Below are positions 5,896-40,174 of a stretch of 60,131 nt of DNA, piece after piece. The DNA is taken from assembly GCA_023252215.1 (NCBI GenBank), contig JAHEXG010000003.1, positions 1-60,131 of the forward strand. The letters run 5' to 3'. Positions within the stretch are counted from its first letter, which is position 1; every line of letters starts with the position of its first letter. The notes beneath the pieces were generated by a model. It was not told where the DNA came from, did no database searches, and saw only the letters and a list, made by a program, of their open reading frames with translations. The DNA comes from Candidatus Altiarchaeales archaeon. Lineage in GTDB: Archaea > Altiarchaeota > Altiarchaeia > IMC4 > QMZM01. A program made the position numbers and the translations under genes.

Positions 5896-5969
5896 TCTAT
5901 TAGCCGTCAGCATTGTCTTCGCTTCGCTCGACAGCAATCGGGGGGGAGGGTCAGGATGAACGGCGCAGC

Positions 5970-6010
5970 CTTTCAAAACTGGGTGGTTGAACTCAACCAC
6001 TCGGTTTGGT
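5970..6010 (+). repeat. HP-1 imperfect hairpin element, copy 2
   Basis: TTTCAAAACTGG-GTGGTTG-AACT-CAACCAC-TCGGTTTGGTG, 75 nt after the thiE stop. Confidence 0.8.
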
Positions 6011-7222: not shown

Positions 7223-7999
7223 CTATATCTCATAGCATTTCTTTGAATAGCCGCAGGACTCGCATTTTCTACCGCTCCCGTGGGGGCATATGTCCGGAAC
7301 CACTCCTTCAAGGATCTTGAACACTGCTTCCGAGGTCTCAGAAACCTTCTTTCTAAGGCTGTCAGTATTCATGACCGGCCTCATCTCCGGTACTCGCGTG
7401 TATTCTACAAAGCCGTAAGGTATTTTTTTCTTCGCCTGCACATCCTCTTCCAAGAGCAGGGCATAGGCGCACACCTGTATCCTATCCCCTTCCCAAACGC
7501 TCTCAGGCGGACTACAGGTCTTAATCTCCACAGGATAATAAAAGGATTCTTTCATGACCTTGTCTATCCTCCCGCACAGGCTCAGTTTCTCGGACGACAC
7601 AGGATAATCGACCCTCCACGGACTCATCCTGCGCAAGGCAGCATCAAAACCAAGGTCTTCTGCGATATAAGAAACCCGCTCACCCAATGCGCCCAAGTCG
7701 GCAAGGACCTCGGACCTCACAGCCTCAGCATCCTCTCTCCTAACAGAAGGATAATCTTCCAAGACGACTCCAAAAGAGCGCTCAACTACATCCCTCAAAG
7801 CAGAAACCAGGCCCCCGGCATCATCAACCGCTCCCAACAACTCCATCTGCTTAGCGATCAACGTCTTCCTCAACGCATGATCGAACAAACCCCTCTCCAG
7901 GCTGGCCACAGAATCAGGCTCAAGCCCCAGGACGCTGGAAAGATAAACGCTACGCGGACAAAAAGAATAAGAACTCAGAACCGAGACAGCAACTTTCAT
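7223..7999 (-). CDS. Cas4/DUF83-like PD-(D/E)XK nuclease with a 4-Cys cluster (no CRISPR-Cas nearby)
   Basis: N-terminal Cys (SYSFCPRSVY), GRIDKV...YPVEIKT core, C-terminal CESCGYSKKC (CX2CX5C). Confidence 0.65.
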   Translation of the reverse strand: MKVAVSVLSSYSFCPRSVYLSSVLGLEPDSVASLERGLFDHALRKTLIAKQMELLGAVDDAGGLVSALRDVVERSFGVVLEDYPSVRREDAEAVRSEVLADLGALGERVSYIAEDLGFDAALRRMSPWRVDYPVSSEKLSLCGRIDKVMKESFYYPVEIKTCSPPESVWEGDRIQVCAYALLLEEDVQAKKKIPYGFVEYTRVPEMRPVMNTDSLRKKVSETSEAVFKILEGVVPDICPHGSGRKCESCGYSKKCYEI

Positions 8000-10877: not shown

Positions 10878-11147
10878 GCGATGATAACGTCCAGGATTTT
10901 ACGAATGTGGCCTTCGGCCATTTGGACTGAGCGGCCGAAGAGAGCGGGCCTTAAAAAGCCGGTTATGCAGCCCGCAAGGGTCGAGGAGCCGAACGAGGCG
11001 ACGAGAAGTTCAAAAACGCGGCCGTCGTTCGTTCGTGTTGTTGCCTCAGTTCCGTCATTAATTAAGGGGGTGGAGGCGTCCGCAACCGGTTTATTTTTCT
11101 GTTGCTCTGTTAAGGAATATAAAGCGCTAAGACGCTATACTACCATA

Positions 11148-12488
11148 ATGGCTGATATTTCCGAGTCCGAGACCTTGGAGCTAAAGAAGTCTACGTCTGA
11201 ACTCCGGGAGGGTGTAATCTCCGTAGCGTCTATGCTAAACAAGCATGGGAAAGGCATCCTATACTTTGGCATAAGGAATGACGGTAAAGCTCTTGGTCAG
11301 GAAATCGGGGAGAGAACTTTAAGGGACGTATCACAGGCAATTTCAGAAAATATTGAGCCGAAGGTCTATCCAAAGATCAGCAAGGAAGATATAGGCGGTA
11401 AGATCTGCATCAAGGTCGAATTCTCCGGAAACAACAAGCCGTATTATGCTTATGGCAGAGCTTACGTGCGTGTAGCCGATGAGGATCGTCAGTTGTCTGC
11501 TAAGGAGATCGAAGAAACAATCCTTCGCAAGAACAAAGATAAGCTACGCTGGGACACTGAAGTATGTGAGAAGGCGACGGTGTCTGACATAAGTCCAAAG
11601 AAGCTTAAATCATATGTCCGGAAAGCACATCTGAGATATGATTCGATTGAAAATGCCTTACAAAAGCTTGGCCTGCGATCCGATGGAAAGATTTTAAACG
11701 CCGCAGTACTGTTATTTGGTCGAAAGCCCGAGACGTTTTTTCCAAATGCCCGCCTAAGGTGTGCAATATTTGCGACGACCGATACTCATCTTCCTCTTGA
11801 CATGCAGGACTATAAAGGAGACCTGTTCACTTTAATAGAAACTGCTCAGCAATACATCCTCCAAAACATACACGTGGGCATGAGGCTTGAAGGCCTGTAC
11901 CGCGTGGATGTGCCGGAAATATCCCAAGAAGCGTTCAGAGAAGCCATAATAAACGCCTTCTGCCACCGAGACTACAGGGAATACGACTCGGTAAACATAG
12001 CGATATTCCGCGACCGCCTGGAAATAAGAAGTCCAGGACTGCTGTATGGCGGACTTACTATAGAGAAGATCAGGCGAGACATGGTATCAGAGAGACGGAA
12101 TGAACTGATCGCCGACCTATTGCATAGGATACATTTCATAGAAAAATGGGGCCGTGGAATAAGCCTTATATTATCAAACGAGCCGACAGCGAACTTCAAG
12201 GAATCGGGAACGCATTTTATAACGACCTTTAAGAGAAAGAGCGTTGAAGCGCAGATGGGCGAGCAAACCGGAGGGTTGGTAGATAGGTTGGTAGATGGGT
12301 TGGTAGAAAACCAAAAGAAGATACTGCGCTTAGTGAAGGTAGACCCATCCATATCAAAAAGAGAACTGGCGCAGAAAACGGGTATCAGCACCACAGCAGT
12401 TGATAAAAACATATCTACTCTCAAGAAGAAAGGCCTGCTGAAACGGGTAGGTCCGGCTAAAGGGGGGCGATGGGAATTGAGTGGATAA
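11148..12488 (+). CDS. Schlafen/AlbA_2 domain + HATPase_c_4-like + C-terminal wHTH protein (COG2865 type)
   Basis: ESETLELKKS...MLNKHGKGILYFGIRNDG at the N-terminus and NAFCHRDY...IEKWGRGI in the middle. HTH at the C-terminus (ISKRELAQKTGISTTAVDKNISTLKKKGLL). Start chosen at ATG 11148. The upstream 270 nt of the track ORF look non-coding. Confidence 0.7.
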   Translation: MADISESETLELKKSTSELREGVISVASMLNKHGKGILYFGIRNDGKALGQEIGERTLRDVSQAISENIEPKVYPKISKEDIGGKICIKVEFSGNNKPYYAYGRAYVRVADEDRQLSAKEIEETILRKNKDKLRWDTEVCEKATVSDISPKKLKSYVRKAHLRYDSIENALQKLGLRSDGKILNAAVLLFGRKPETFFPNARLRCAIFATTDTHLPLDMQDYKGDLFTLIETAQQYILQNIHVGMRLEGLYRVDVPEISQEAFREAIINAFCHRDYREYDSVNIAIFRDRLEIRSPGLLYGGLTIEKIRRDMVSERRNELIADLLHRIHFIEKWGRGISLILSNEPTANFKESGTHFITTFKRKSVEAQMGEQTGGLVDRLVDGLVENQKKILRLVKVDPSISKRELAQKTGISTTAVDKNISTLKKKGLLKRVGPAKGGRWELSG

Positions 12489-12546
12489 GGGGTAATTAAT
12501 CTGTGCCATATATCTTGGTATGGCCTATTGAATTTATGACCACCGG

Positions 12547-13857
12547 TTACCCTGACTTGGACTTTAGCATTTCCTCAAGAACACATGTCGTGGCTATTTC
12601 TACTGGCATGCCTAAGGCGCAAGCGGTATATGCAAATAATGTTAAGATTGTTAACGGCTTCTCTTCAATTTCTTTAATCTGTTTTTCAATTGACTGTAAA
12701 GGATAATATTGTTCGTTTTTCATACATATCGGTAGGCCGAATTTCTCAACAAAGTCGAGATAGTTTTTACTTTGGAAATATAGACTTGTTTTCCAACAGT
12801 TGATTAGCCTAAATTTTATTTCTATCATATCCTTATAACTAGCCTCAGACAGGAAATCCGAATATTTTTTGAAAATAGCTAAAATTGCACCGAAAATTAA
12901 TCGTCCACTCAAGAATTTAATATCAAAGGTAGATGTATCCCCCTCTCGAGAGTTGTATTTTTTATTTAATGCTTCCAACAAATCCTTATCATACTCCTCA
13001 GAGTTGCCAAAAATTGTAGTTAAGGGTAATAAAATTTTTAAGTTGCCGTAAATATCAATCTCCATAGACAAGCCATTTAAGTTAAAATCACCTTTGCTGA
13101 GCGTTCTTAATACAATACTGTTATGATATGTATTGATGGTATCAAAAAATATCGTACCCCCAAATGATATTTCTTTATCCTCAGTAGAGTCCTTTATTTT
13201 ATATGGTTCATTAAATTTTTTAAGAATATCCAGCATTTTCTCAGGAAAAAGTAGATCCTCGATAAAATGATGCTTAAATGGTTTTGGCGTAGCGTATATT
13301 TCAAGATACGATAGGCTATCCTCCCCTTTACAAAACGTTAATTCACACTTTCTAAATTTTTCTAAATCTTCATCATATTTCTGAGCTTTTTTGTAGAGTT
13401 CATCGATAATATGCCTATTCGTTTCTGGAATGGGATCGGACGCTGACCCTTGTCTCCTGTAAATTATTCCATCAGAGTTAATATACGGTGGGTTTTTCCC
13501 TTCAGGTATTACTACCATCAAGACATTCATTCCGTTACGAAGAGGTAATGTAAAAGTTTCAAACAACGGAAAAGGTTGCAAATTACCCCTTACGGAGTCT
13601 CTAATTATGTCTGGCGAATCTTTGATACCAATTATATTGGTCGCAAAATTAGTCTTTGTATCTGAATCGATCCCTATAAAATATATGCCCCCATGAGAAT
13701 TAGCAAAAGAAGCTATCGATTTTGATATTTTTCGCCCATTCAATTTTTCCTTTTTGTACTCGATATACCAACCCTCAGCAATGGATTTAAGTAATTCCAA
13801 ATCGCTTTCTTTAACCTCTTCAAAATCTTTTCCGAAGGGATTGAACAAGTTTCTCAC
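12547..13857 (-). CDS. AlbA_2 (Schlafen-like) N-terminal domain protein with a C-terminal region of about 300 aa and unknown function; low-GC gene
   Basis: ESDLELLKSIAEGWYIEYKKEK...SIASFANSHGGIYFIGID. Gene and flanks (about 12500-14160) are visibly AT-rich. Confidence 0.6.
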   Translation of the reverse strand: MRNLFNPFGKDFEEVKESDLELLKSIAEGWYIEYKKEKLNGRKISKSIASFANSHGGIYFIGIDSDTKTNFATNIIGIKDSPDIIRDSVRGNLQPFPLFETFTLPLRNGMNVLMVVIPEGKNPPYINSDGIIYRRQGSASDPIPETNRHIIDELYKKAQKYDEDLEKFRKCELTFCKGEDSLSYLEIYATPKPFKHHFIEDLLFPEKMLDILKKFNEPYKIKDSTEDKEISFGGTIFFDTINTYHNSIVLRTLSKGDFNLNGLSMEIDIYGNLKILLPLTTIFGNSEEYDKDLLEALNKKYNSREGDTSTFDIKFLSGRLIFGAILAIFKKYSDFLSEASYKDMIEIKFRLINCWKTSLYFQSKNYLDFVEKFGLPICMKNEQYYPLQSIEKQIKEIEEKPLTILTLFAYTACALGMPVEIATTCVLEEMLKSKSG

Positions 13858-24301: not shown

Positions 24302-25445
24302 AATAGGAGTCGGGCTCACAAAATTCGGAGAGCTCTGGGAGAAAAGCTACCGCGACCTCATAACCGAGGCCGGAGTAAAGGCCATAAGCGATGCCGGAAT
24401 AGACGGAATAGACGTGCAGGAACTGTTCGTAGGCTCCATGTCCCCCGGCCTGTTCGCTGCGCAGGAGCATATAGGCGCGCTTGTCGCCGACTACGCAGGG
24501 TTAACGGGCATCCCCGCAACAAGGGTGGAAGCCGCATGCGCTTCAGGAGGCCTTGCGCTCAGGCAGGCATATACTTCGATAATGGCTGGAAGAAACGACA
24601 TCGTAGTCGCAGGCGGCGTGGAAAAGATGACCGACGTACCCACGGGCCTTGCAATGACCGCCCTAATGGGGGCGGGAGACGAAGAATGGGAAGCATTCAA
24701 CGGAGCGACATTCCCCGCGCTTTACGCCCTGATGGCCCGAAGACACATGATGGAATACGGAACCACGATAGAACAGATATCAATGGTCTCAGTCAAAAAC
24801 CACGCGAACGCAAAACACAACGAATACGCGCAATTCCAGTTCGAAGTATCATTGGAAGACGTTCTAAATTCCGCCAAGGTCGCAGAGCCTCTGCGCCTGC
24901 TGCACTGCTCGCCCATAACCGACGGAGCGGCAGCGGTCATACTCGCAAGCGAAAAGAAAGCAAAAGAAATATGCGACAACCCTGTCTGGATAACCGCATC
25001 GGCAATGGCGACCGACACGCTCGCCCTAAGCGATCGAAAGAGCTTGACGCAGACCAATTCGGCCATTCTCGCGGCAAAAGACGCCTACAAGCAGGCAGGA
25101 GTCGGCGCAAAAGACATAGACTTTGCGGAGGTCCACGACTGTTTCGCAATAGCAGAGCTTTTGGCAATAGAAGCGCTCGGCTTCTGCAAGATAGGCGCGG
25201 GCGGAAAATACACGGAAGACGGGCACACCAAGATCGGCGGAGAACACCCTGTAAACACGAGCGGAGGCTTGAAAGGAAAAGGACATCCTGTCGGCACGAC
25301 TGGAATAGCGCAGGCAATAGAGGCGACGCTTCAACTACGCGGGACAGCCGGGAAAAGACAGGTCAAAGACGCAAACATCGGGCTCACGCACAATGTGGGA
25401 GGATCGGGTGCGACCGCGGTTGTTCACATATACCGGAGGGACTAA
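24279..25445 (+). CDS. Acetyl-CoA acetyltransferase (archaeal thiolase)
   Basis: MTGKKVAIIGVGLTKFGE...ACASGG...HNVGGSG. Start placed at ATG 24279 (second repeat copy) rather than track start 24249, which lies inside the insert. Confidence 0.85.
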   Translation: MTGKKVAIIGVGLTKFGELWEKSYRDLITEAGVKAISDAGIDGIDVQELFVGSMSPGLFAAQEHIGALVADYAGLTGIPATRVEAACASGGLALRQAYTSIMAGRNDIVVAGGVEKMTDVPTGLAMTALMGAGDEEWEAFNGATFPALYALMARRHMMEYGTTIEQISMVSVKNHANAKHNEYAQFQFEVSLEDVLNSAKVAEPLRLLHCSPITDGAAAVILASEKKAKEICDNPVWITASAMATDTLALSDRKSLTQTNSAILAAKDAYKQAGVGAKDIDFAEVHDCFAIAELLAIEALGFCKIGAGGKYTEDGHTKIGGEHPVNTSGGLKGKGHPVGTTGIAQAIEATLQLRGTAGKRQVKDANIGLTHNVGGSGATAVVHIYRRD

Positions 25446-25446
25446 G

Positions 25447-25845
25447 ATGAAAGGATTAGCTTCTTACTGGAGATTGATTCCTCAAAGGTATAACCTTATT
25501 GGAACCGAGTGCAATCACTGCAAGCAAAAGTTCTTCCCTCCGAGGAAGATATGCCCCACCTGTAGACGGCATGGGGAGATAAAGAGCTATAAATTCAAAG
25601 GCGTTGGAGAGATTTACTCGTACACCGTAATACATGCTGCGCCCGATGGGTTCGAGTTTCAGAAGCCTTACGCGCTAGGGCTCATAAGGTTGGTCGAAGG
25701 ACCTCTTGTGACTGCGCAGATCGTGGACTGTAAGCCGGACGAAGTAGAAGTTGGGAAGAAAGTGGAAATGGTTTTTAGGAAGATTTTTGCCGGTGGGAAG
25801 GAAGGGACTATCCGGTATGGATATAAGTTTAAGTTGGTTGACTGA
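25447..25845 (+). CDS. DUF35 OB-fold/Zn-ribbon protein (scaffold of the thiolase/HMGCS complex)
   Basis: CNHCKQKFFPPRKICPTC...YSYTVIH...GLIRLVEGP. ATG lies 1 nt after the thiolase stop. Confidence 0.8.
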   Translation: MKGLASYWRLIPQRYNLIGTECNHCKQKFFPPRKICPTCRRHGEIKSYKFKGVGEIYSYTVIHAAPDGFEFQKPYALGLIRLVEGPLVTAQIVDCKPDEVEVGKKVEMVFRKIFAGGKEGTIRYGYKFKLVD

Positions 25846-25868
25846 TTATTTGTTTTCTTCTATTGGCC

Positions 25869-25908
25869 TTTCAAAACTGGGTGGTTGAACTCAACCACGC
25901 GGTTCGGG
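25869..25908 (+). repeat. HP-1 imperfect hairpin element, copy 3
   Basis: TTTCAAAACTGG-GTGGTTG-AACT-CAACCAC-GCGGTTCGGG, 23 nt after the DUF35 stop. Confidence 0.8.
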
Positions 25909-36394: not shown

Positions 36395-36397
36395 ACC

Positions 36398-36415
36398 TCC
36401 CTTCACAGGGACGTT
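36398..36415 (+). repeat. Conserved tRNA-trailer hairpin TCCCTTCACAGGGACGTT (copy 2)
   Basis: Identical to 857-874. Starts 4 nt after the tRNA end. Confidence 0.7.
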
Positions 36416-36512
36416 GATGGAAAATCCTAAAGGACGTCCCAGTGGGACAAACAGGAGGCAGGGTCTTCGACCCCCCCATAACGCACATTTTCAAAGATAA
36501 GAGGTCCATAAA

Positions 36513-38067: not shown

Positions 38068-38250
38068 CACCTTTTTTGCCTTCGAGAAGGCATGCCCTGT
38101 TGGGCATTTCTTAAGAAGAAAGATGCCTGAAGGCATGTCCCTGAATGGACAAAGAAGGGTGAGGCCTTCAGGCCCCACAGTGACGTGATATTTTTCGGCG
38201 CGATACCAATAATCCATATCCCAAAAAAAAATATTTTTGGAGGAACAAAA

Positions 38251-38471: not shown

Positions 38472-38545
38472 GGGCTCGTAGATCAGTTCGGTAGATCGCC
38501 CGCTTGGCGTGCGGGAGGCCTCGGGTTCGAATCCCGACGAGTCCA
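38472..38545 (+). tRNA. tRNA-Ala (GGC)
   Basis: G3:U70 pair present. Anticodon arm CCCGC-TTGGCGT-GCGGG, T-arm TCGGG-TTCGAAT-CCCGA. Confidence 0.9.
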
Positions 38546-38646
38546 ATCCCTATCCCTCCCGCTTATTATTTTAACCTCAAACCCCTATCATAGACCATTT
38601 CATTCAACGGAACCGTGGGGTCGAAAGATCCCACGCTGATTCAACC

Positions 38647-38668
38647 GGGACCGTGGGGTAGCTTGTCC
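38647..38668 (+). pseudogene. Isolated copy of the tRNA-Pro 5' end (19 nt identical, 21/22)
   Basis: GGGACCGTGGGGTAGCTTGtCC versus the genuine 38752-38773. Followed by a trailer-like hairpin instead of the rest of a tRNA. Confidence 0.65.
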
Positions 38669-38751
38669 AGAACTCTCCCAAAGGGATGGTTTCATCCCCA
38701 AAAGAAAATTAAATTATAGAAACAATAAAAAATTTAATAAAATTCATTAAT

Positions 38752-38825
38752 GGGACCGTGGGGTAGCTTGGCCATCCTTCTAGCTTGGGGTGCTAGAAAC
38801 CTGTGTTCAAATCACAGCGGTCCCA
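38752..38825 (+). tRNA. tRNA-Pro (GGG)
   Basis: GGGACCG/CGGTCCC acceptor, anticodon arm CTAGC-TTGGGGT-GCTAG, T-arm CTGTG-TTCAAAT-CACAG. Confidence 0.85.
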
Positions 38826-38913
38826 TAGGAATCCCCCTCAAGGGATTATTCCATTCCCAAAAGAAAAGACAATGGGGTCTAAAGACCCCCCGTGGGGTGG
38901 GTCAGGATTAACC

Positions 38914-38952
38914 TAAAACTGGGGAGGGGCAAAGCCCCTCCGCGGTTTGGAG
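38914..38952 (+). repeat. HP-1 imperfect hairpin element, copy 4 (upper stem fully compensated)
   Basis: TAAAACTGG-GGAGGGGC-AAA-GCCCCTCC-GCGGTTTGGAG. Confidence 0.8.
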
Positions 38953-38978
38953 CTGTGTTCAAATCACAGCGGTCCCAT
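38953..38978 (+). repeat. Exact 26-nt copy of the tRNA-Pro 3' end
   Basis: CTGTGTTCAAATCACAGCGGTCCCAT is identical to 38801-38826. Confidence 0.9.
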
Positions 38979-39080
38979 GAACTGCCCTAAAGGGCATGTT
39001 TCATCCCCCTTGTCCTTCTGGGGCATGACCTGCATTAAATTGACTGGATTTAATGCCAAAAGTCGAAATAATTAGCATTC

Positions 39081-39154
39081 GCCTCCGTGGCTCAGACTGG
39101 CAGAGCGGCTGACTTGTAATCAGTAGGTCGAGGGTTCAAATCCCTCCGGGGGCT
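39081..39154 (+). tRNA. tRNA-Thr (TGT)
   Basis: GCCTCCG/CGGGGGC acceptor, anticodon arm GCTGA-CTTGTAA-TCAGT, T-arm GAGGG-TTCAAAT-CCCTC. Confidence 0.9.
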
Positions 39155-39214
39155 AATATTTTCTTAAACTGATTGGACATTTTAACCTGTCTTCCCTATT
39201 GTTTACTTAATAAA

Positions 39215-39391
39215 ATGGCTCGTCCGATCGAACCTCTTCCAACCCTCATGGGACAAGACGCTGTTAACTTCCTTAGAGAGAAGGAGAGGATTGAAAACCT
39301 TGATCCGAATGGCAAGGAAGCTAAGGAGCGTAACTCATTTCTTGACAAGTGTGTAAAGGTTTATAATAAGACCCGTCCGATTAATCTTTGA
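39215..39391 (+). CDS. Hypothetical small protein (58 aa)
   Basis: MARPIEPLPTLMGQDAVNFLREKERIENLDP... Converges on the GNAT gene and overlaps its 3' end by 11 nt. Confidence 0.35.
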   Translation: MARPIEPLPTLMGQDAVNFLREKERIENLDPNGKEAKERNSFLDKCVKVYNKTRPINL

Positions 39392-39905
39392 TTTTAAGCA
39401 GGTCTAGGTACATCGGGATGTTTGTTTTAATCTTTCTGTCTACGAGCCGCTTAAAGCCGTTCTTTTCATAAAACCGTATATTGCGCTCTTCGTTTAATGA
39501 GTCCACCGCCAGGTAGCGGCATCCCACTTCGTTTGCGTGTAGTACTGCCCGTCCAAGTACGTGTTCTATTATGACGCTTCCAAATCCTCTGCCTTGTTCT
39601 CCTTTTTTGACTCCGAGGCGTCCGATCATCATTGCAGGATAGTTCGCCAGATGTTTTCCTAACTTGTCGAATTCCTTCATGTCCTCCTCATTAACCTTTA
39701 TGTCTGCGTTGGAGAGACAGAAGAAGGCTTTTAATTCGTCTTCATATTCCAGCAAATATGTGACGGCCAGCCTGCCGTCAAGGTAACCCAGAGCATCCGT
39801 ACTTAGGAACTCGTTTAAATCAGCTATGCCGCAGTCGAAGCCTTCTATTAAATGGATTGTCTCCGTTGAAAGCTTAGTGATCCTGATTTTGGAGTAATCT
39901 ATCAA
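39381..39905 (-). CDS. GNAT acetyltransferase resembling TacT/KacT-type toxins
   Basis: FDCGIADLNEFL near the N-terminus and the GRLGVKKGEQGRGFGS acetyl-CoA motif. Confidence 0.6.
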   Translation of the reverse strand: MIDYSKIRITKLSTETIHLIEGFDCGIADLNEFLSTDALGYLDGRLAVTYLLEYEDELKAFFCLSNADIKVNEEDMKEFDKLGKHLANYPAMMIGRLGVKKGEQGRGFGSVIIEHVLGRAVLHANEVGCRYLAVDSLNEERNIRFYEKNGFKRLVDRKIKTNIPMYLDLLKIKD

Positions 39906-40174
39906 GTCGTATCACCTTTAGCGAATAAGGCGTTGGCGGTTTAGGTGCTGCTTTATTTATTAATTGGTTGACTGGATTAAACGGCGAGTGTTATTGTTTT
40001 AAAATGTAGAATGAGAAATAGAAGATATATGGGGGCTATTAACTCCTCTGTTCAGCGTTTATTCTTCTATTATCTCGTATTCTCCGTCGTCGTCAATGTA
40101 TGCTTTTAGATTTGTCAGGGATTCGTCTTTGGTCGTTGGTGTGTTCAGGTCTTGGAAGTTTTTTTTATGTTTTT

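Follow-up and report, generated by a model that had tools for sequence, protein, structure and literature searches.

Orphan tRNA-Pro ends in an Altiarchaeales genome are probably duplication scars of small, structured mobile modules

Stray copies of the two ends of a tRNA-Pro gene lie beside the intact gene in contig JAHEXG010000003.1 of a Candidatus Altiarchaeales archaeon (GenBank assembly GCA_023252215.1), of which a stretch of 60,131 nucleotides, here called the window, was analyzed. The gene belongs to a cluster that runs in the order tRNA-Asn, tRNA-Met, the Cbf5 gene, tRNA-Ser, tRNA-Ala, tRNA-Pro, and tRNA-Thr. The tRNA-Pro(GGG) gene is complete at 38752-38825, as evidenced by an ARAGORN call (38751-38826) and the Rfam tRNA model (51.5 bits), and only there do tRNA-Pro positions 24-48, anticodon included, occur. 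Around it are three inserts of 17, 82, and 126 nt, the longest of which holds a conserved structured element of about 60 nt. None of the inserts contains an open reading frame (ORF); the neighboring ORFs encode Cbf5, a GNAT acetyltransferase, and CorA. All features of the tRNA-Pro locus described below are on the plus strand.

Two copies of the 5' end precede the intact gene. The first is part of repeat A, ATTCAAC-GGAACCGTGGGGT at 38602-38621 and ATTCAACCGGGACCGTGGGGT at 38639-38659, with 20 of 22 positions matching and a length of 20 to 21 nt. Copy 1 consists of 7 nt of 5' leader followed by a degenerate version of tRNA-Pro positions 1-13 (GGAACCGTGGGGT, 13 nt, 38609-38621), and it marks the ancestral gene start. 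Between the two copies is a 17-nt filler (38622-38638); its first part repeats the neighboring tRNA bases in inverted orientation and closes a GAAA-capped hairpin, CGTGGGGTC-GAAA-GATCCCACG, at 38614-38635. This pattern, we infer, is what fold-back (snap-back) copying would give. The second copy is an orphan 5' fragment that forms the upstream arm of repeat B (38647-38669) and agrees with tRNA-Pro positions 1-23 at 22 of 23 nucleotides. Its first 19 nt are exact (38647-38665), with no shuffled sequence giving two or more matches, and the TCCA after them is the GCCA of the D-loop with one change. Insert B (82 nt, 38670-38751) then leads to the intact gene; it starts with a trailer-type module, GAAC-hairpin-GTTTCATCCCC-AAAAGAAAA (38670-38708), continues as an AT-rich, TATA-like stretch, and contains a motif, GGTTTCATYCCCAAAAGAAAA, that is common to the window, to metagenome locus L082, and to L001, a metagenome-assembled genome (MAG) of the Altiarchaeia.

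Repeat C involves the other end of the gene. Its copy 1 (38801-38826) lies within the intact gene and comprises the T-arm, the 3' acceptor strand, the discriminator, and one further nucleotide, while copy 2 is an orphan 3' fragment (38953-38978) that is identical at 26 of 26 positions and begins 2 nt past the 3' end of the element. The 126-nt insert between them opens with a trailer-type module (38827-38868) composed of an outer stem (GGAAT/ATTCC), an inner CCC-TCAA-GGG hairpin, and CATTCCC-AAAAGAAAAG, which is homologous to the start of an insert behind tRNA-Ala in L001 (...TTTCATTCCCAAAAGAAAAA). A hairpin called h1, GGGGTC-TAAA-GACCCC, follows at 38874-38889; L001, L081, L087, L091, L094, and L115 also have it ahead of the element. 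The element itself, of subfamily 1, spans 38890-38950 (81.1 bits with the covariance model R1, introduced below), with a purine run at 38892-38901, hairpin P1, GGGT[CAGGATTA]ACCT, at 38899-38914, and hairpin P2 at 38916-38948. Displaced behind the orphan 3' fragment is the native tRNA-Pro trailer, TGAAC-hairpin-GTTTCATCCCCC (38979-39010), which resembles the trailer standing directly after tRNA-Pro in L001 (TTGAAC...CTTCACCCCC). In tRNA-Pro numbering, the repeats run from leader position -7 to position 13 (A), from 1 to 23 (B), and from 49 to the discriminator plus 1 nt (C).

Much of this anatomy had been recognized in a preliminary description made from the letters alone. The intact gene and the exact 26-nt copy of its 3' end are confirmed as described; the 5' fragment, reported as identical over 19 of 19 nt, is a longer copy; and the degenerate first fragment is real and reaches 7 nt into the leader. 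The three homologous trailers are also real, and they prove to be members of a module family found after many tRNAs of the lineage. What the description missed is the conserved, multicopy structured element in the 126-nt insert.

Comparison with related genomes dates these features. The arrangement is reproduced in Logan contigs from two independent runs (X1, covering 38499-38928, and X2, covering 38605-39200), so it is not an assembly chimera; the runs holding locus sequence are groundwater metagenomes. The neighboring proteins L15e and Cbf5 are archaeal, and the closest genome matches are Candidatus Altiarchaeia MAGs. L001 encodes a Cbf5 that is 91% identical and has the same Asn-Met-Cbf5-Ser-Ala-Pro-Thr order with a plain tRNA-Pro: a flank ending in CATAGACCATT abuts the gene directly, and the trailer and then tRNA-Thr stand behind it. 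The flank ending in CATAGACCATT in the window is orthologous to the tRNA-Pro flank in L001, X3, X4, and X22, and the joints in these related populations correspond to 38599->38752 (X3 and X4) and 38599->38747 (X22, from an RNA run). Also, tRNA-Pro is joined plainly to tRNA-Thr in the X3, X4, and X22 contigs. Because every one of these orthologous loci carries a single, plain tRNA-Pro, the fragments and the sequences between them are recent additions in the window lineage. The only difference between the intact gene and its L001 orthologue is at T-stem pair 52-62, where T-A has become A-T in a compensatory change; the orphan 3' copy has the window's version.

On our reading, the tRNA-Pro(GGG) gene is a single working gene that has received at least three separate small insertions. 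We propose that each insertion duplicated its landing stretch, so that one complete copy of the gene survived while the other repeat arms were left as orphans. The stray pieces are thus probably the duplication scars of small structured mobile modules that constitute a nonautonomous, copy-and-paste family. The suggestion in the preliminary description of a hotspot of repeated integration holds insofar as there are at least three repeat-bracketed insertions that close relatives lack, but the agents that it named, casposons and integrative elements, do not fit: no integrase, Cas1, or terminal inverted repeats were found, the repeats measure 12 to 103 nt, and the sites include at least seven tRNAs as well as non-tRNA sequences.

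The element family is previously undescribed; literature searches by exact sequence and by topic gave no description of it, and the 126-nt insert had only chance-level matches in Rfam 15 (E up to 10). Each element of about 60 nt consists of a 5' purine run, P1, P2, and a fixed 3' end, CGGTTTGG. Its core 20-mer occurs at 36 metagenome loci, a set collected by exact match to that core. In an alignment of 31 distinct copies, P1 is GGGU[CAGGAUUA]ACCU without variation, P2 is a 13-bp hairpin whose upper seven pairs covary, and the fixed 3' end reads CGGUUUGG. Pairing in P2 reaches 98.8%, and these seven pairs hold 53 compensatory cells, a result reached by none of 500 shuffles and clearly better than that of slid controls. 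A viral or plasmid origin was considered and rejected, as the core 20-mer had no match in 2.9 million viral contigs.

The covariance model R1, built from the 31-copy alignment, identified three further, divergent copies in the window, bringing the total to four, and second copies in L086, L101, and L110, while it found nothing in 79 loci (833 kb) of other archaeal orders. These results indicate a lineage-specific multicopy family with at least two subfamilies. The three additional window copies are on the plus strand and have in common the P2 sequence GGGTGGTTGA..TCAACCAC. Copy 2 (subfamily 2; 1008-1112; 26.5 bits, E=3.8e-5) lies downstream of tRNA-Trp and is followed by a decayed tRNA-Trp-like 3' end on the same strand (1114-1139; about 20 of 25 positions). 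Copy 3 (subfamily 2; 5939-6009; 36.7 bits) is intergenic, between a thiE-like gene and an S49 peptidase gene. Copy 4 (25861-25907; 23 bits) is truncated at its 5' end and comes after ORF 25393-25845; behind it, the final ~54 nt of that ORF, stop codon included, recur in frame and in diverged form (to 25955). The sites that the element occupies in relatives are downstream of tRNA-Ala, -Leu, -His, -Phe, -Ser, or -Trp, within a repeat of a clustered regularly interspaced short palindromic repeat (CRISPR) array, and at gene ends.

One locus, L082 (1799-3652), presents tRNA-His, the element, a copy of the tRNA-His 3' end, a trailer module, a second, divergent element-like piece (~2130-2198) that ends in GCGGTTTGG, and an archaeal 16S rRNA gene from 2517. 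Two pairings were tried and set aside as chance-level leads: the P1 loop CAGGAUUAAC with the 5' end of the L082 16S rRNA, GUUGAUCCUG (10 bp, including one G-U), and GGAUU-AACC with the T-arm sequence GGUU(CG)AAUCC.

Direct repeats around the inserts point to duplication of the targets. Fifteen of 29 scorable loci have a repeat of at least 12 nt (12 to 103 nt) whose second arm begins no more than a few nucleotides from the element's 3' end, CGGTTTGG, and whose first arm lies 90 to 350 nt upstream of the second; such a repeat accompanies 0.9% of random anchors in the same contigs. The 3' parts of tRNA-Pro, -Ala, -Leu (three loci), -His, -Phe, and -Ser (two loci) are duplicated in this way, and the window has a decayed copy from tRNA-Trp. 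In eight of nine tRNA cases, the repeat ends 0 to 2 nt beyond the discriminator, and most tRNA repeats begin in or next to the T-loop, five of them at G53 of GTTC. Other duplicated targets include CRISPR repeats, the last ~54 nt of the window ORF, and intergenic DNA. The longest repeat, 103 of 103 nt in L109, contains the first 86 nt and the ribosome-binding site of an oppositely oriented membrane-protein gene. In L085, a perfect 73-nt repeat includes the whole trailer, and its perfection points to a young event. In L101, CRISPR repeats are the duplicated target on two occasions, with one and the same position in the repeat and different P2 sequences.

With respect to CRISPR, element copies abut the repeats at the junction of GCGGTTTGG and TGAGAAGTACTATGTAGTGTGGAAAC in L101 (5300-6749) and also in L088, L090, L102, and L103; one such copy in L101 stands behind a RelE/ParE-like toxin-antitoxin pair. 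The element may occupy a leader position there, or the repeat may be preferred as a target.

Across the family, inserts measure 74 to 350 nt, and their 5' sides vary: often there is a trailer module with h1, sometimes unrelated sequence, and once a truncation inside the element. The 3' end of the element is thus fixed, and its 5' end is variable or truncated. The orphan 3' copies have decayed, with the T-loop part mutated in L001, L081, L092, and L093 and the X3 orthologue of the L001 copy changed further. That older orphan copies decay speaks for scars and against functional parts. Moreover, the orphan fragments carry no CCA, which identifies them as duplicates made at the DNA level and not as copies of mature tRNA. 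L092 (a 19-nt repeat around ~137 nt of small hairpins) and L096 display the same repeat-bracketed pattern upstream of their tRNAs, and in L115 a repeat from the T-loop to the end of tRNA-Met brackets ~135 nt of hairpins without the element. No consistent microhomology was found at the junctions across loci, and a blastn-short search of the window and the loci turned up no source for the 5' inserts.

Filled and empty sites demonstrate that the family is mobile between close relatives. In L001, GGGGTC-loop-GACCCC and, farther on, GGGGTGGGTCAGGATTAACCTAAAACTGGGGAGGGGC-loop-GCCCCTCCGCGGTTTGG sit after tRNA-Ala, and behind them 18 nt of the tRNA-Ala 3' end are repeated; at tRNA-Ala in the window, both the element and the 3'-end copy are missing. 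The S9-RpoN spacer is ~350 nt long in L083 versus 10 nt in the related L091, and in L083 a trailer-type module follows a ribosomal-protein gene. X3 and X4 are without an element at the site of the window copy at 25861.

The same modules also occur within tRNA genes. An intron-tolerant scan found, on the reverse strand of L115 (390-641), a tRNA-Met(CAT) with a 177-nt insert at position 37/38, consisting in order of a trailer-type module, a hairpin, h1, the element, and UGAGGUA. A unit of trailer module plus element can therefore occupy the 37/38 position as an intron. The L115 exons form a complete cloverleaf and are ~90% identical to the window's tRNA-Met. Archaeal tRNA introns have a core in which a 4-bp helix, containing the first two bases of the anticodon, is flanked by a 3-nt bulge on each side, and they range in length from 11 to 129 nt (PMC4090602). 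In L115, CUCA (32-35) faces UGAG with 3-nt bulges GUA and UAA, an outer helix is not evident, and the intron, at 177 nt, is longer than that range. In the minimum-energy fold (z = -8.1), the cloverleaf, the core, and all of the module hairpins are preserved, so that the copy has the features of an archaeal tRNA intron and is predicted to be spliced. A trailer-type module by itself makes up the introns of tRNA-Ser(GGA) in L085 and tRNA-Arg(UCU) in L087. The Rfam tRNA model misses both the L115 tRNA-Met (at the gathering score) and the L085 tRNA-Ser.

Trailers and introns elsewhere in the window were noted as well. The trailers of tRNA-Met (36395-36480) and tRNA-Ser (38068-38180) contain arrays of three to five short hairpins with loops of 3 to 6 nt, and such arrays are absent behind the corresponding genes of L001; the trailers of tRNA-Met and tRNA-Trp have 27 nt in common at 93% identity. 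The tRNA-Trp(CCA) gene (693-852) has an 87-nt intron at the canonical position with CTGA and GATGATGA boxes, which presumably belong to a C/D-box small RNA of the kind nested in euryarchaeal tRNA-Trp introns.

The element further contains a mirror repeat: taken in reverse order from UCAGG, its 5' purine run corresponds to the 5' strand of P2 in one fixed register, A or T standing across from A. Mirror identity is 0.81 versus 0.64 +/- 0.02 in shuffles (0 of 2000 as high), values not corrected for relatedness among the copies, and in a register-free version of the test 0 of 2000 shuffles were as good. Subfamily 2 has no mirror relation. Mirror repeats are a signature of antiparallel purine-motif triple helices, and the covariation suggests that the purine run may form such a helix with P2. 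Watson-Crick pairing of the purine run with the 3' strand of P2, tried as an alternative, found no support: 139 of 2000 shuffles did equally well.

In the trailer/intron module, a pyrimidine strand is followed by a first purine strand and, across a linker (GTTGATGG or TTTCATCCC), by another purine strand, a layout seen in the introns of L085, L087, and L115, at 7748-7805 in L001, and in the trailers of L081, L096, and L098. In asymmetric modules, the A/G pattern of the second purine strand mirrors that of the first (5,3,4 versus 4,3,5; 2,3,5 versus 5,3,2). This pattern would fit a triplex, with a Watson-Crick hairpin as the alternative.

How the modules might be copied can be framed only tentatively. 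It is quite possible, though somewhat short of probable, that they spread by target-primed, template-switching DNA synthesis. At the target, the insertion would start from a nick or a staggered break. Synthesis would then copy a discrete, single-stranded template ending at CGGTTTGG, most simply an element transcript released from a tRNA cotranscript, and the displaced target stretch would be copied again to yield the direct repeat. A discrete single-stranded template is suggested by the sharp 3' end, the ragged 5' end, the variable repeats, the subfamilies, and the co-orientation with host transcription. The fold-back filler at repeat A and hairpins that resemble fold-back copies of T-rich terminators would fit a template-switching process. 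Also, since other insertions would be lethal, the only ones seen are those in which duplication has kept the tRNA intact or a bulge-helix-bulge has kept it spliceable.

Several points weigh against the idea that the stray pieces are scars of a copy-and-paste family. Neither the scanned parts of the window nor the surroundings of any copy yielded a reverse transcriptase, a transposase, or an integrase: Pfam searches of 30 window ORFs returned housekeeping genes and one Cas4-like nuclease, and clustering of the ORFs within 3 kb of 38 family loci produced no recurrent protein family. The enzymology of the mechanism is accordingly conjecture. About half of the copies show no flanking repeat, and a repeat that ends within 2 nt of the discriminator in eight of nine tRNA cases also resembles an integrase attachment (att) site. 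To our knowledge, target duplications of 12 to 103 nt have no established prokaryotic precedent. The RNA evidence is thin, consisting of one wetland metatranscriptome contig that contains the core 20-mer, and the RNA runs of the same study returned nothing from the locus. Finally, nearly all of the evidence comes from metagenome contigs of unverified taxonomy; taxonomy is confirmed only for the window relatives L001 and L002, and among the metagenome contigs only L082 has an archaeal 16S rRNA gene.

An alternative that emphasizes function is that the arrangement is selected. The element would be a small-RNA gene that uses tRNA promoters and tRNA processing to define its ends, by tRNase Z upstream and by RNase P or a tRNA-like 3' end downstream, and the 3' copy would be kept as a processing or terminator signal. 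This account makes sense of the observation that tRNA-linked copies all have the same orientation as their tRNA. It also accommodates L108 and L113, where the element lies 2 to 3 nt upstream of a complete tRNA-Ala and behind a TATA-like box, so that RNase P would set its 3' end, as well as L105, with the order tRNA-Arg, trailer, element, TTTTTT. The 20-nt core is invariant though P2 differs, but an exact 20-mer match was the search criterion. However, the orphan 3' copies decay, as described above for L001, L081, L092, L093, the X3 orthologue, and the window's tRNA-Trp, and a lone 3' fragment cannot form the acceptor helix that RNase P or tRNase Z would need. Many copies, moreover, have no tRNA nearby. 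Selection would explain retention and orientation, not repeats at non-tRNA sites, and it is compatible with mobility; as a full explanation, we consider it unlikely. A reading of the element and its adjacent repeat as scaffold plus guide (TnpB/CAST-like) is disfavored: degeneracy is greatest in the part of the repeat nearest the scaffold, and no linked effector gene was seen.

Att-site scars are a rather improbable source of the fragments, despite real similarities. Tyrosine-integrase plasmids or viruses of the SSV or pNOB8 type would have rebuilt tRNA-Pro from attP, and deletion of their bodies would have left ~100 nt of attP-proximal DNA. tRNA-Pro is a known target of archaeal mobile elements, and at this locus a direct repeat derived from part of the tRNA gene has the intact gene at one border, as an att site does. 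The eight of nine tRNA repeats that end at or within 2 nt of the discriminator cover the classical extent of archaeal att sites, from the T-loop/T-stem to the tRNA end (PMC3293823). Archaeal integrative elements such as SSV1 and pNOB8, and the tRNA-Thr fragment of Caldiarchaeum (PMC3293823), likewise show an intact gene with a co-oriented orphan end, a repeat that reaches the tRNA end, and differences between relatives. However, these systems have a kilobase-sized body with an integrase, and one family uses one cognate att site, whereas the inserts here are 74 to 350 nt long, no integrase or remnant lies between any repeat pair, and the variable repeats occur at many tRNA and non-tRNA sites. 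One 60-nt element recurs at no fewer than seven tRNAs, in every case with a repeat derived from the tRNA concerned, and its host tRNA differs between two close relatives (Ala versus Pro). Repeats also flank it at the start of a membrane-protein gene (103 nt), at the 3' end of a gene, in CRISPR repeats, and in intergenic DNA. The absence of the core from the viral contigs argues further against this origin, as does the covariation of P2, which a protein-binding arm site would not show.

The wreck of a tandem tRNA-Pro array, a second suggestion of the preliminary description, is very unlikely. Unequal crossing-over would have produced two or three gene-plus-trailer units that then suffered internal or 5' deletions, in keeping with three co-oriented units that each have a trailer of similar architecture. 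Nevertheless, L001, X3, X4, and X22 hold one plain gene and no decaying array, and the first unit contains an inverted, not a tandem, copy. The tRNA parts are identical (26/26) or nearly so (22/23) while the trailers are only loosely alike, and one duplication age cannot yield both. The 126-nt spacer, in addition, is a member of a family that occurs at other tRNAs, each with its own end copy.

Finally, the idea that the fragments are exons of a tRNA-Pro isoacceptor (UGG or CGG), split or with several introns, that would be spliced in trans or in cis is hardly credible, even though UCCAGA in the 3' flank of the 5' fragment could form 6 bp with UUUGGA at the element end and the lineage has long tRNA introns made of the same modules (L115), because fragments 1-23 and 49-73 leave out positions 24-48 with the anticodon arm, ARAGORN with introns of up to 400 nt finds only the intact gene, in agreement with the failure of the preliminary description to assemble a valid tRNA, the fragment ends have no bulge-helix-bulge (no 3-nt bulges around a 4-bp helix), and relatives are without the fragments altogether.

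Among known systems, none matches the module family in full. The split and tri-split tRNA genes of Nanoarchaeum and Caldivirga cover the whole tRNA and have a bulge-helix-bulge at the junction, neither of which is the case here. Casposons have Cas1/PolB, terminal inverted repeats, and a 14- to 15-bp duplication, in contrast to the repeats of 20, 23, and 26 nt at tRNA-Pro. Miniature inverted-repeat transposable elements (MITEs) have terminal inverted repeats and a fixed short duplication, whereas the 5' ends of these inserts are unrelated between loci and only the 3' end is fixed. Eukaryotic short interspersed nuclear elements (SINEs) are similar in that they are small structured units with subfamilies, several copies per genome, a sharp 3' end and a variable or truncated 5' end, variable duplications, and an association with tRNA; the modules differ in having no evident internal promoter, poly-A tail, or simple-repeat tail and no known partner reverse transcriptase, in their prokaryotic host, and in an RNA intermediate that is only proposed. 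Bacterial REP/BIME and Correia-like sequences and archaeal MITEs are also short, hairpin-forming, noncoding, multicopy, mostly intergenic, and often cotranscribed with their neighbors. Here, however, there are no terminal inverted repeats or short duplications of fixed length, only one end is fixed, and no RAYT or insertion sequence partner was seen.

The 3' end of MALAT1 and MEN-beta offers a structural parallel, namely, a tRNA or part of one directly adjoined by a hairpin that may take up a third strand in its major groove, and RNase P cleavage would create the element's 3' end in L108 and L113 in a similar manner. The MALAT1/MEN-beta triplex is of the U.A-U/C+.G-C type, whereas the candidate here is an antiparallel purine motif (G.G-C, A or U.A-U) suggested by covariation alone. 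A parallel for the intron form is the transposition of tRNA introns in Thermoproteales, where, as far as the work of Fujishima et al. (2010) is summarized in PMC4090602, near-identical short sequences in unrelated tRNA genes imply recent movement. The L115, L085, and L087 introns resemble that account; the modules described here, unlike the introns in that summary, are also found outside tRNA bodies and flanked by target duplications, and the lineage is Altiarchaeia.

A few other features of the window deserve mention. Between tRNA-Thr and the next ORF common to both genomes (39173-40100 in the window versus 8262-8400 in L001), the window has its GNAT acetyltransferase gene (39381-39905, minus strand), and L001 has no counterpart at this place. 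A Cas4-like PD-(D/E)XK nuclease ORF (7223-7999, minus strand) is without neighboring cas genes. Two adjacent ORFs with Schlafen/AlbA_2 domains (10881-13857) lie in a stretch of lower G+C content (0.37 at 12-14 kb).

The origin of the introns, orphan halves, and split forms of archaeal tRNA genes is a long-standing open question. Earlier evidence has been indirect, namely, similar introns in Thermoproteales and one Caldiarchaeum fragment beside a recombinase gene. Here, one module family appears in several states: as trailer, leader, end-duplicating insertion, and canonical intron and at filled and empty sites. It also adds a new conserved nucleic-acid motif with unusual mirror-repeat (triplex-type) covariation. 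For annotation, orphan tRNA ends in such genomes should not be taken for pseudogenes of lost arrays or provirus att sites, and standard tRNA models overlook genes with module introns.

More speculatively, and with considerable doubt, we posit that Altiarchaeia-like archaea harbor prokaryotic, SINE-like mobile structured RNAs, which would be cut from tRNA cotranscripts, fold into hairpins that a purine-motif triplex clamps, and be copied back into DNA at nicks in transcribed genes, acting as a live source of tRNA introns (as in L115) and orphan tRNA halves. If true, this SINE-like reading would supply a mechanism for intron gain and gene splitting that has so far been inferred but never caught in the act. 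Because several states coexist in one lineage, the process is testable in metagenome populations and, in principle, in vitro.

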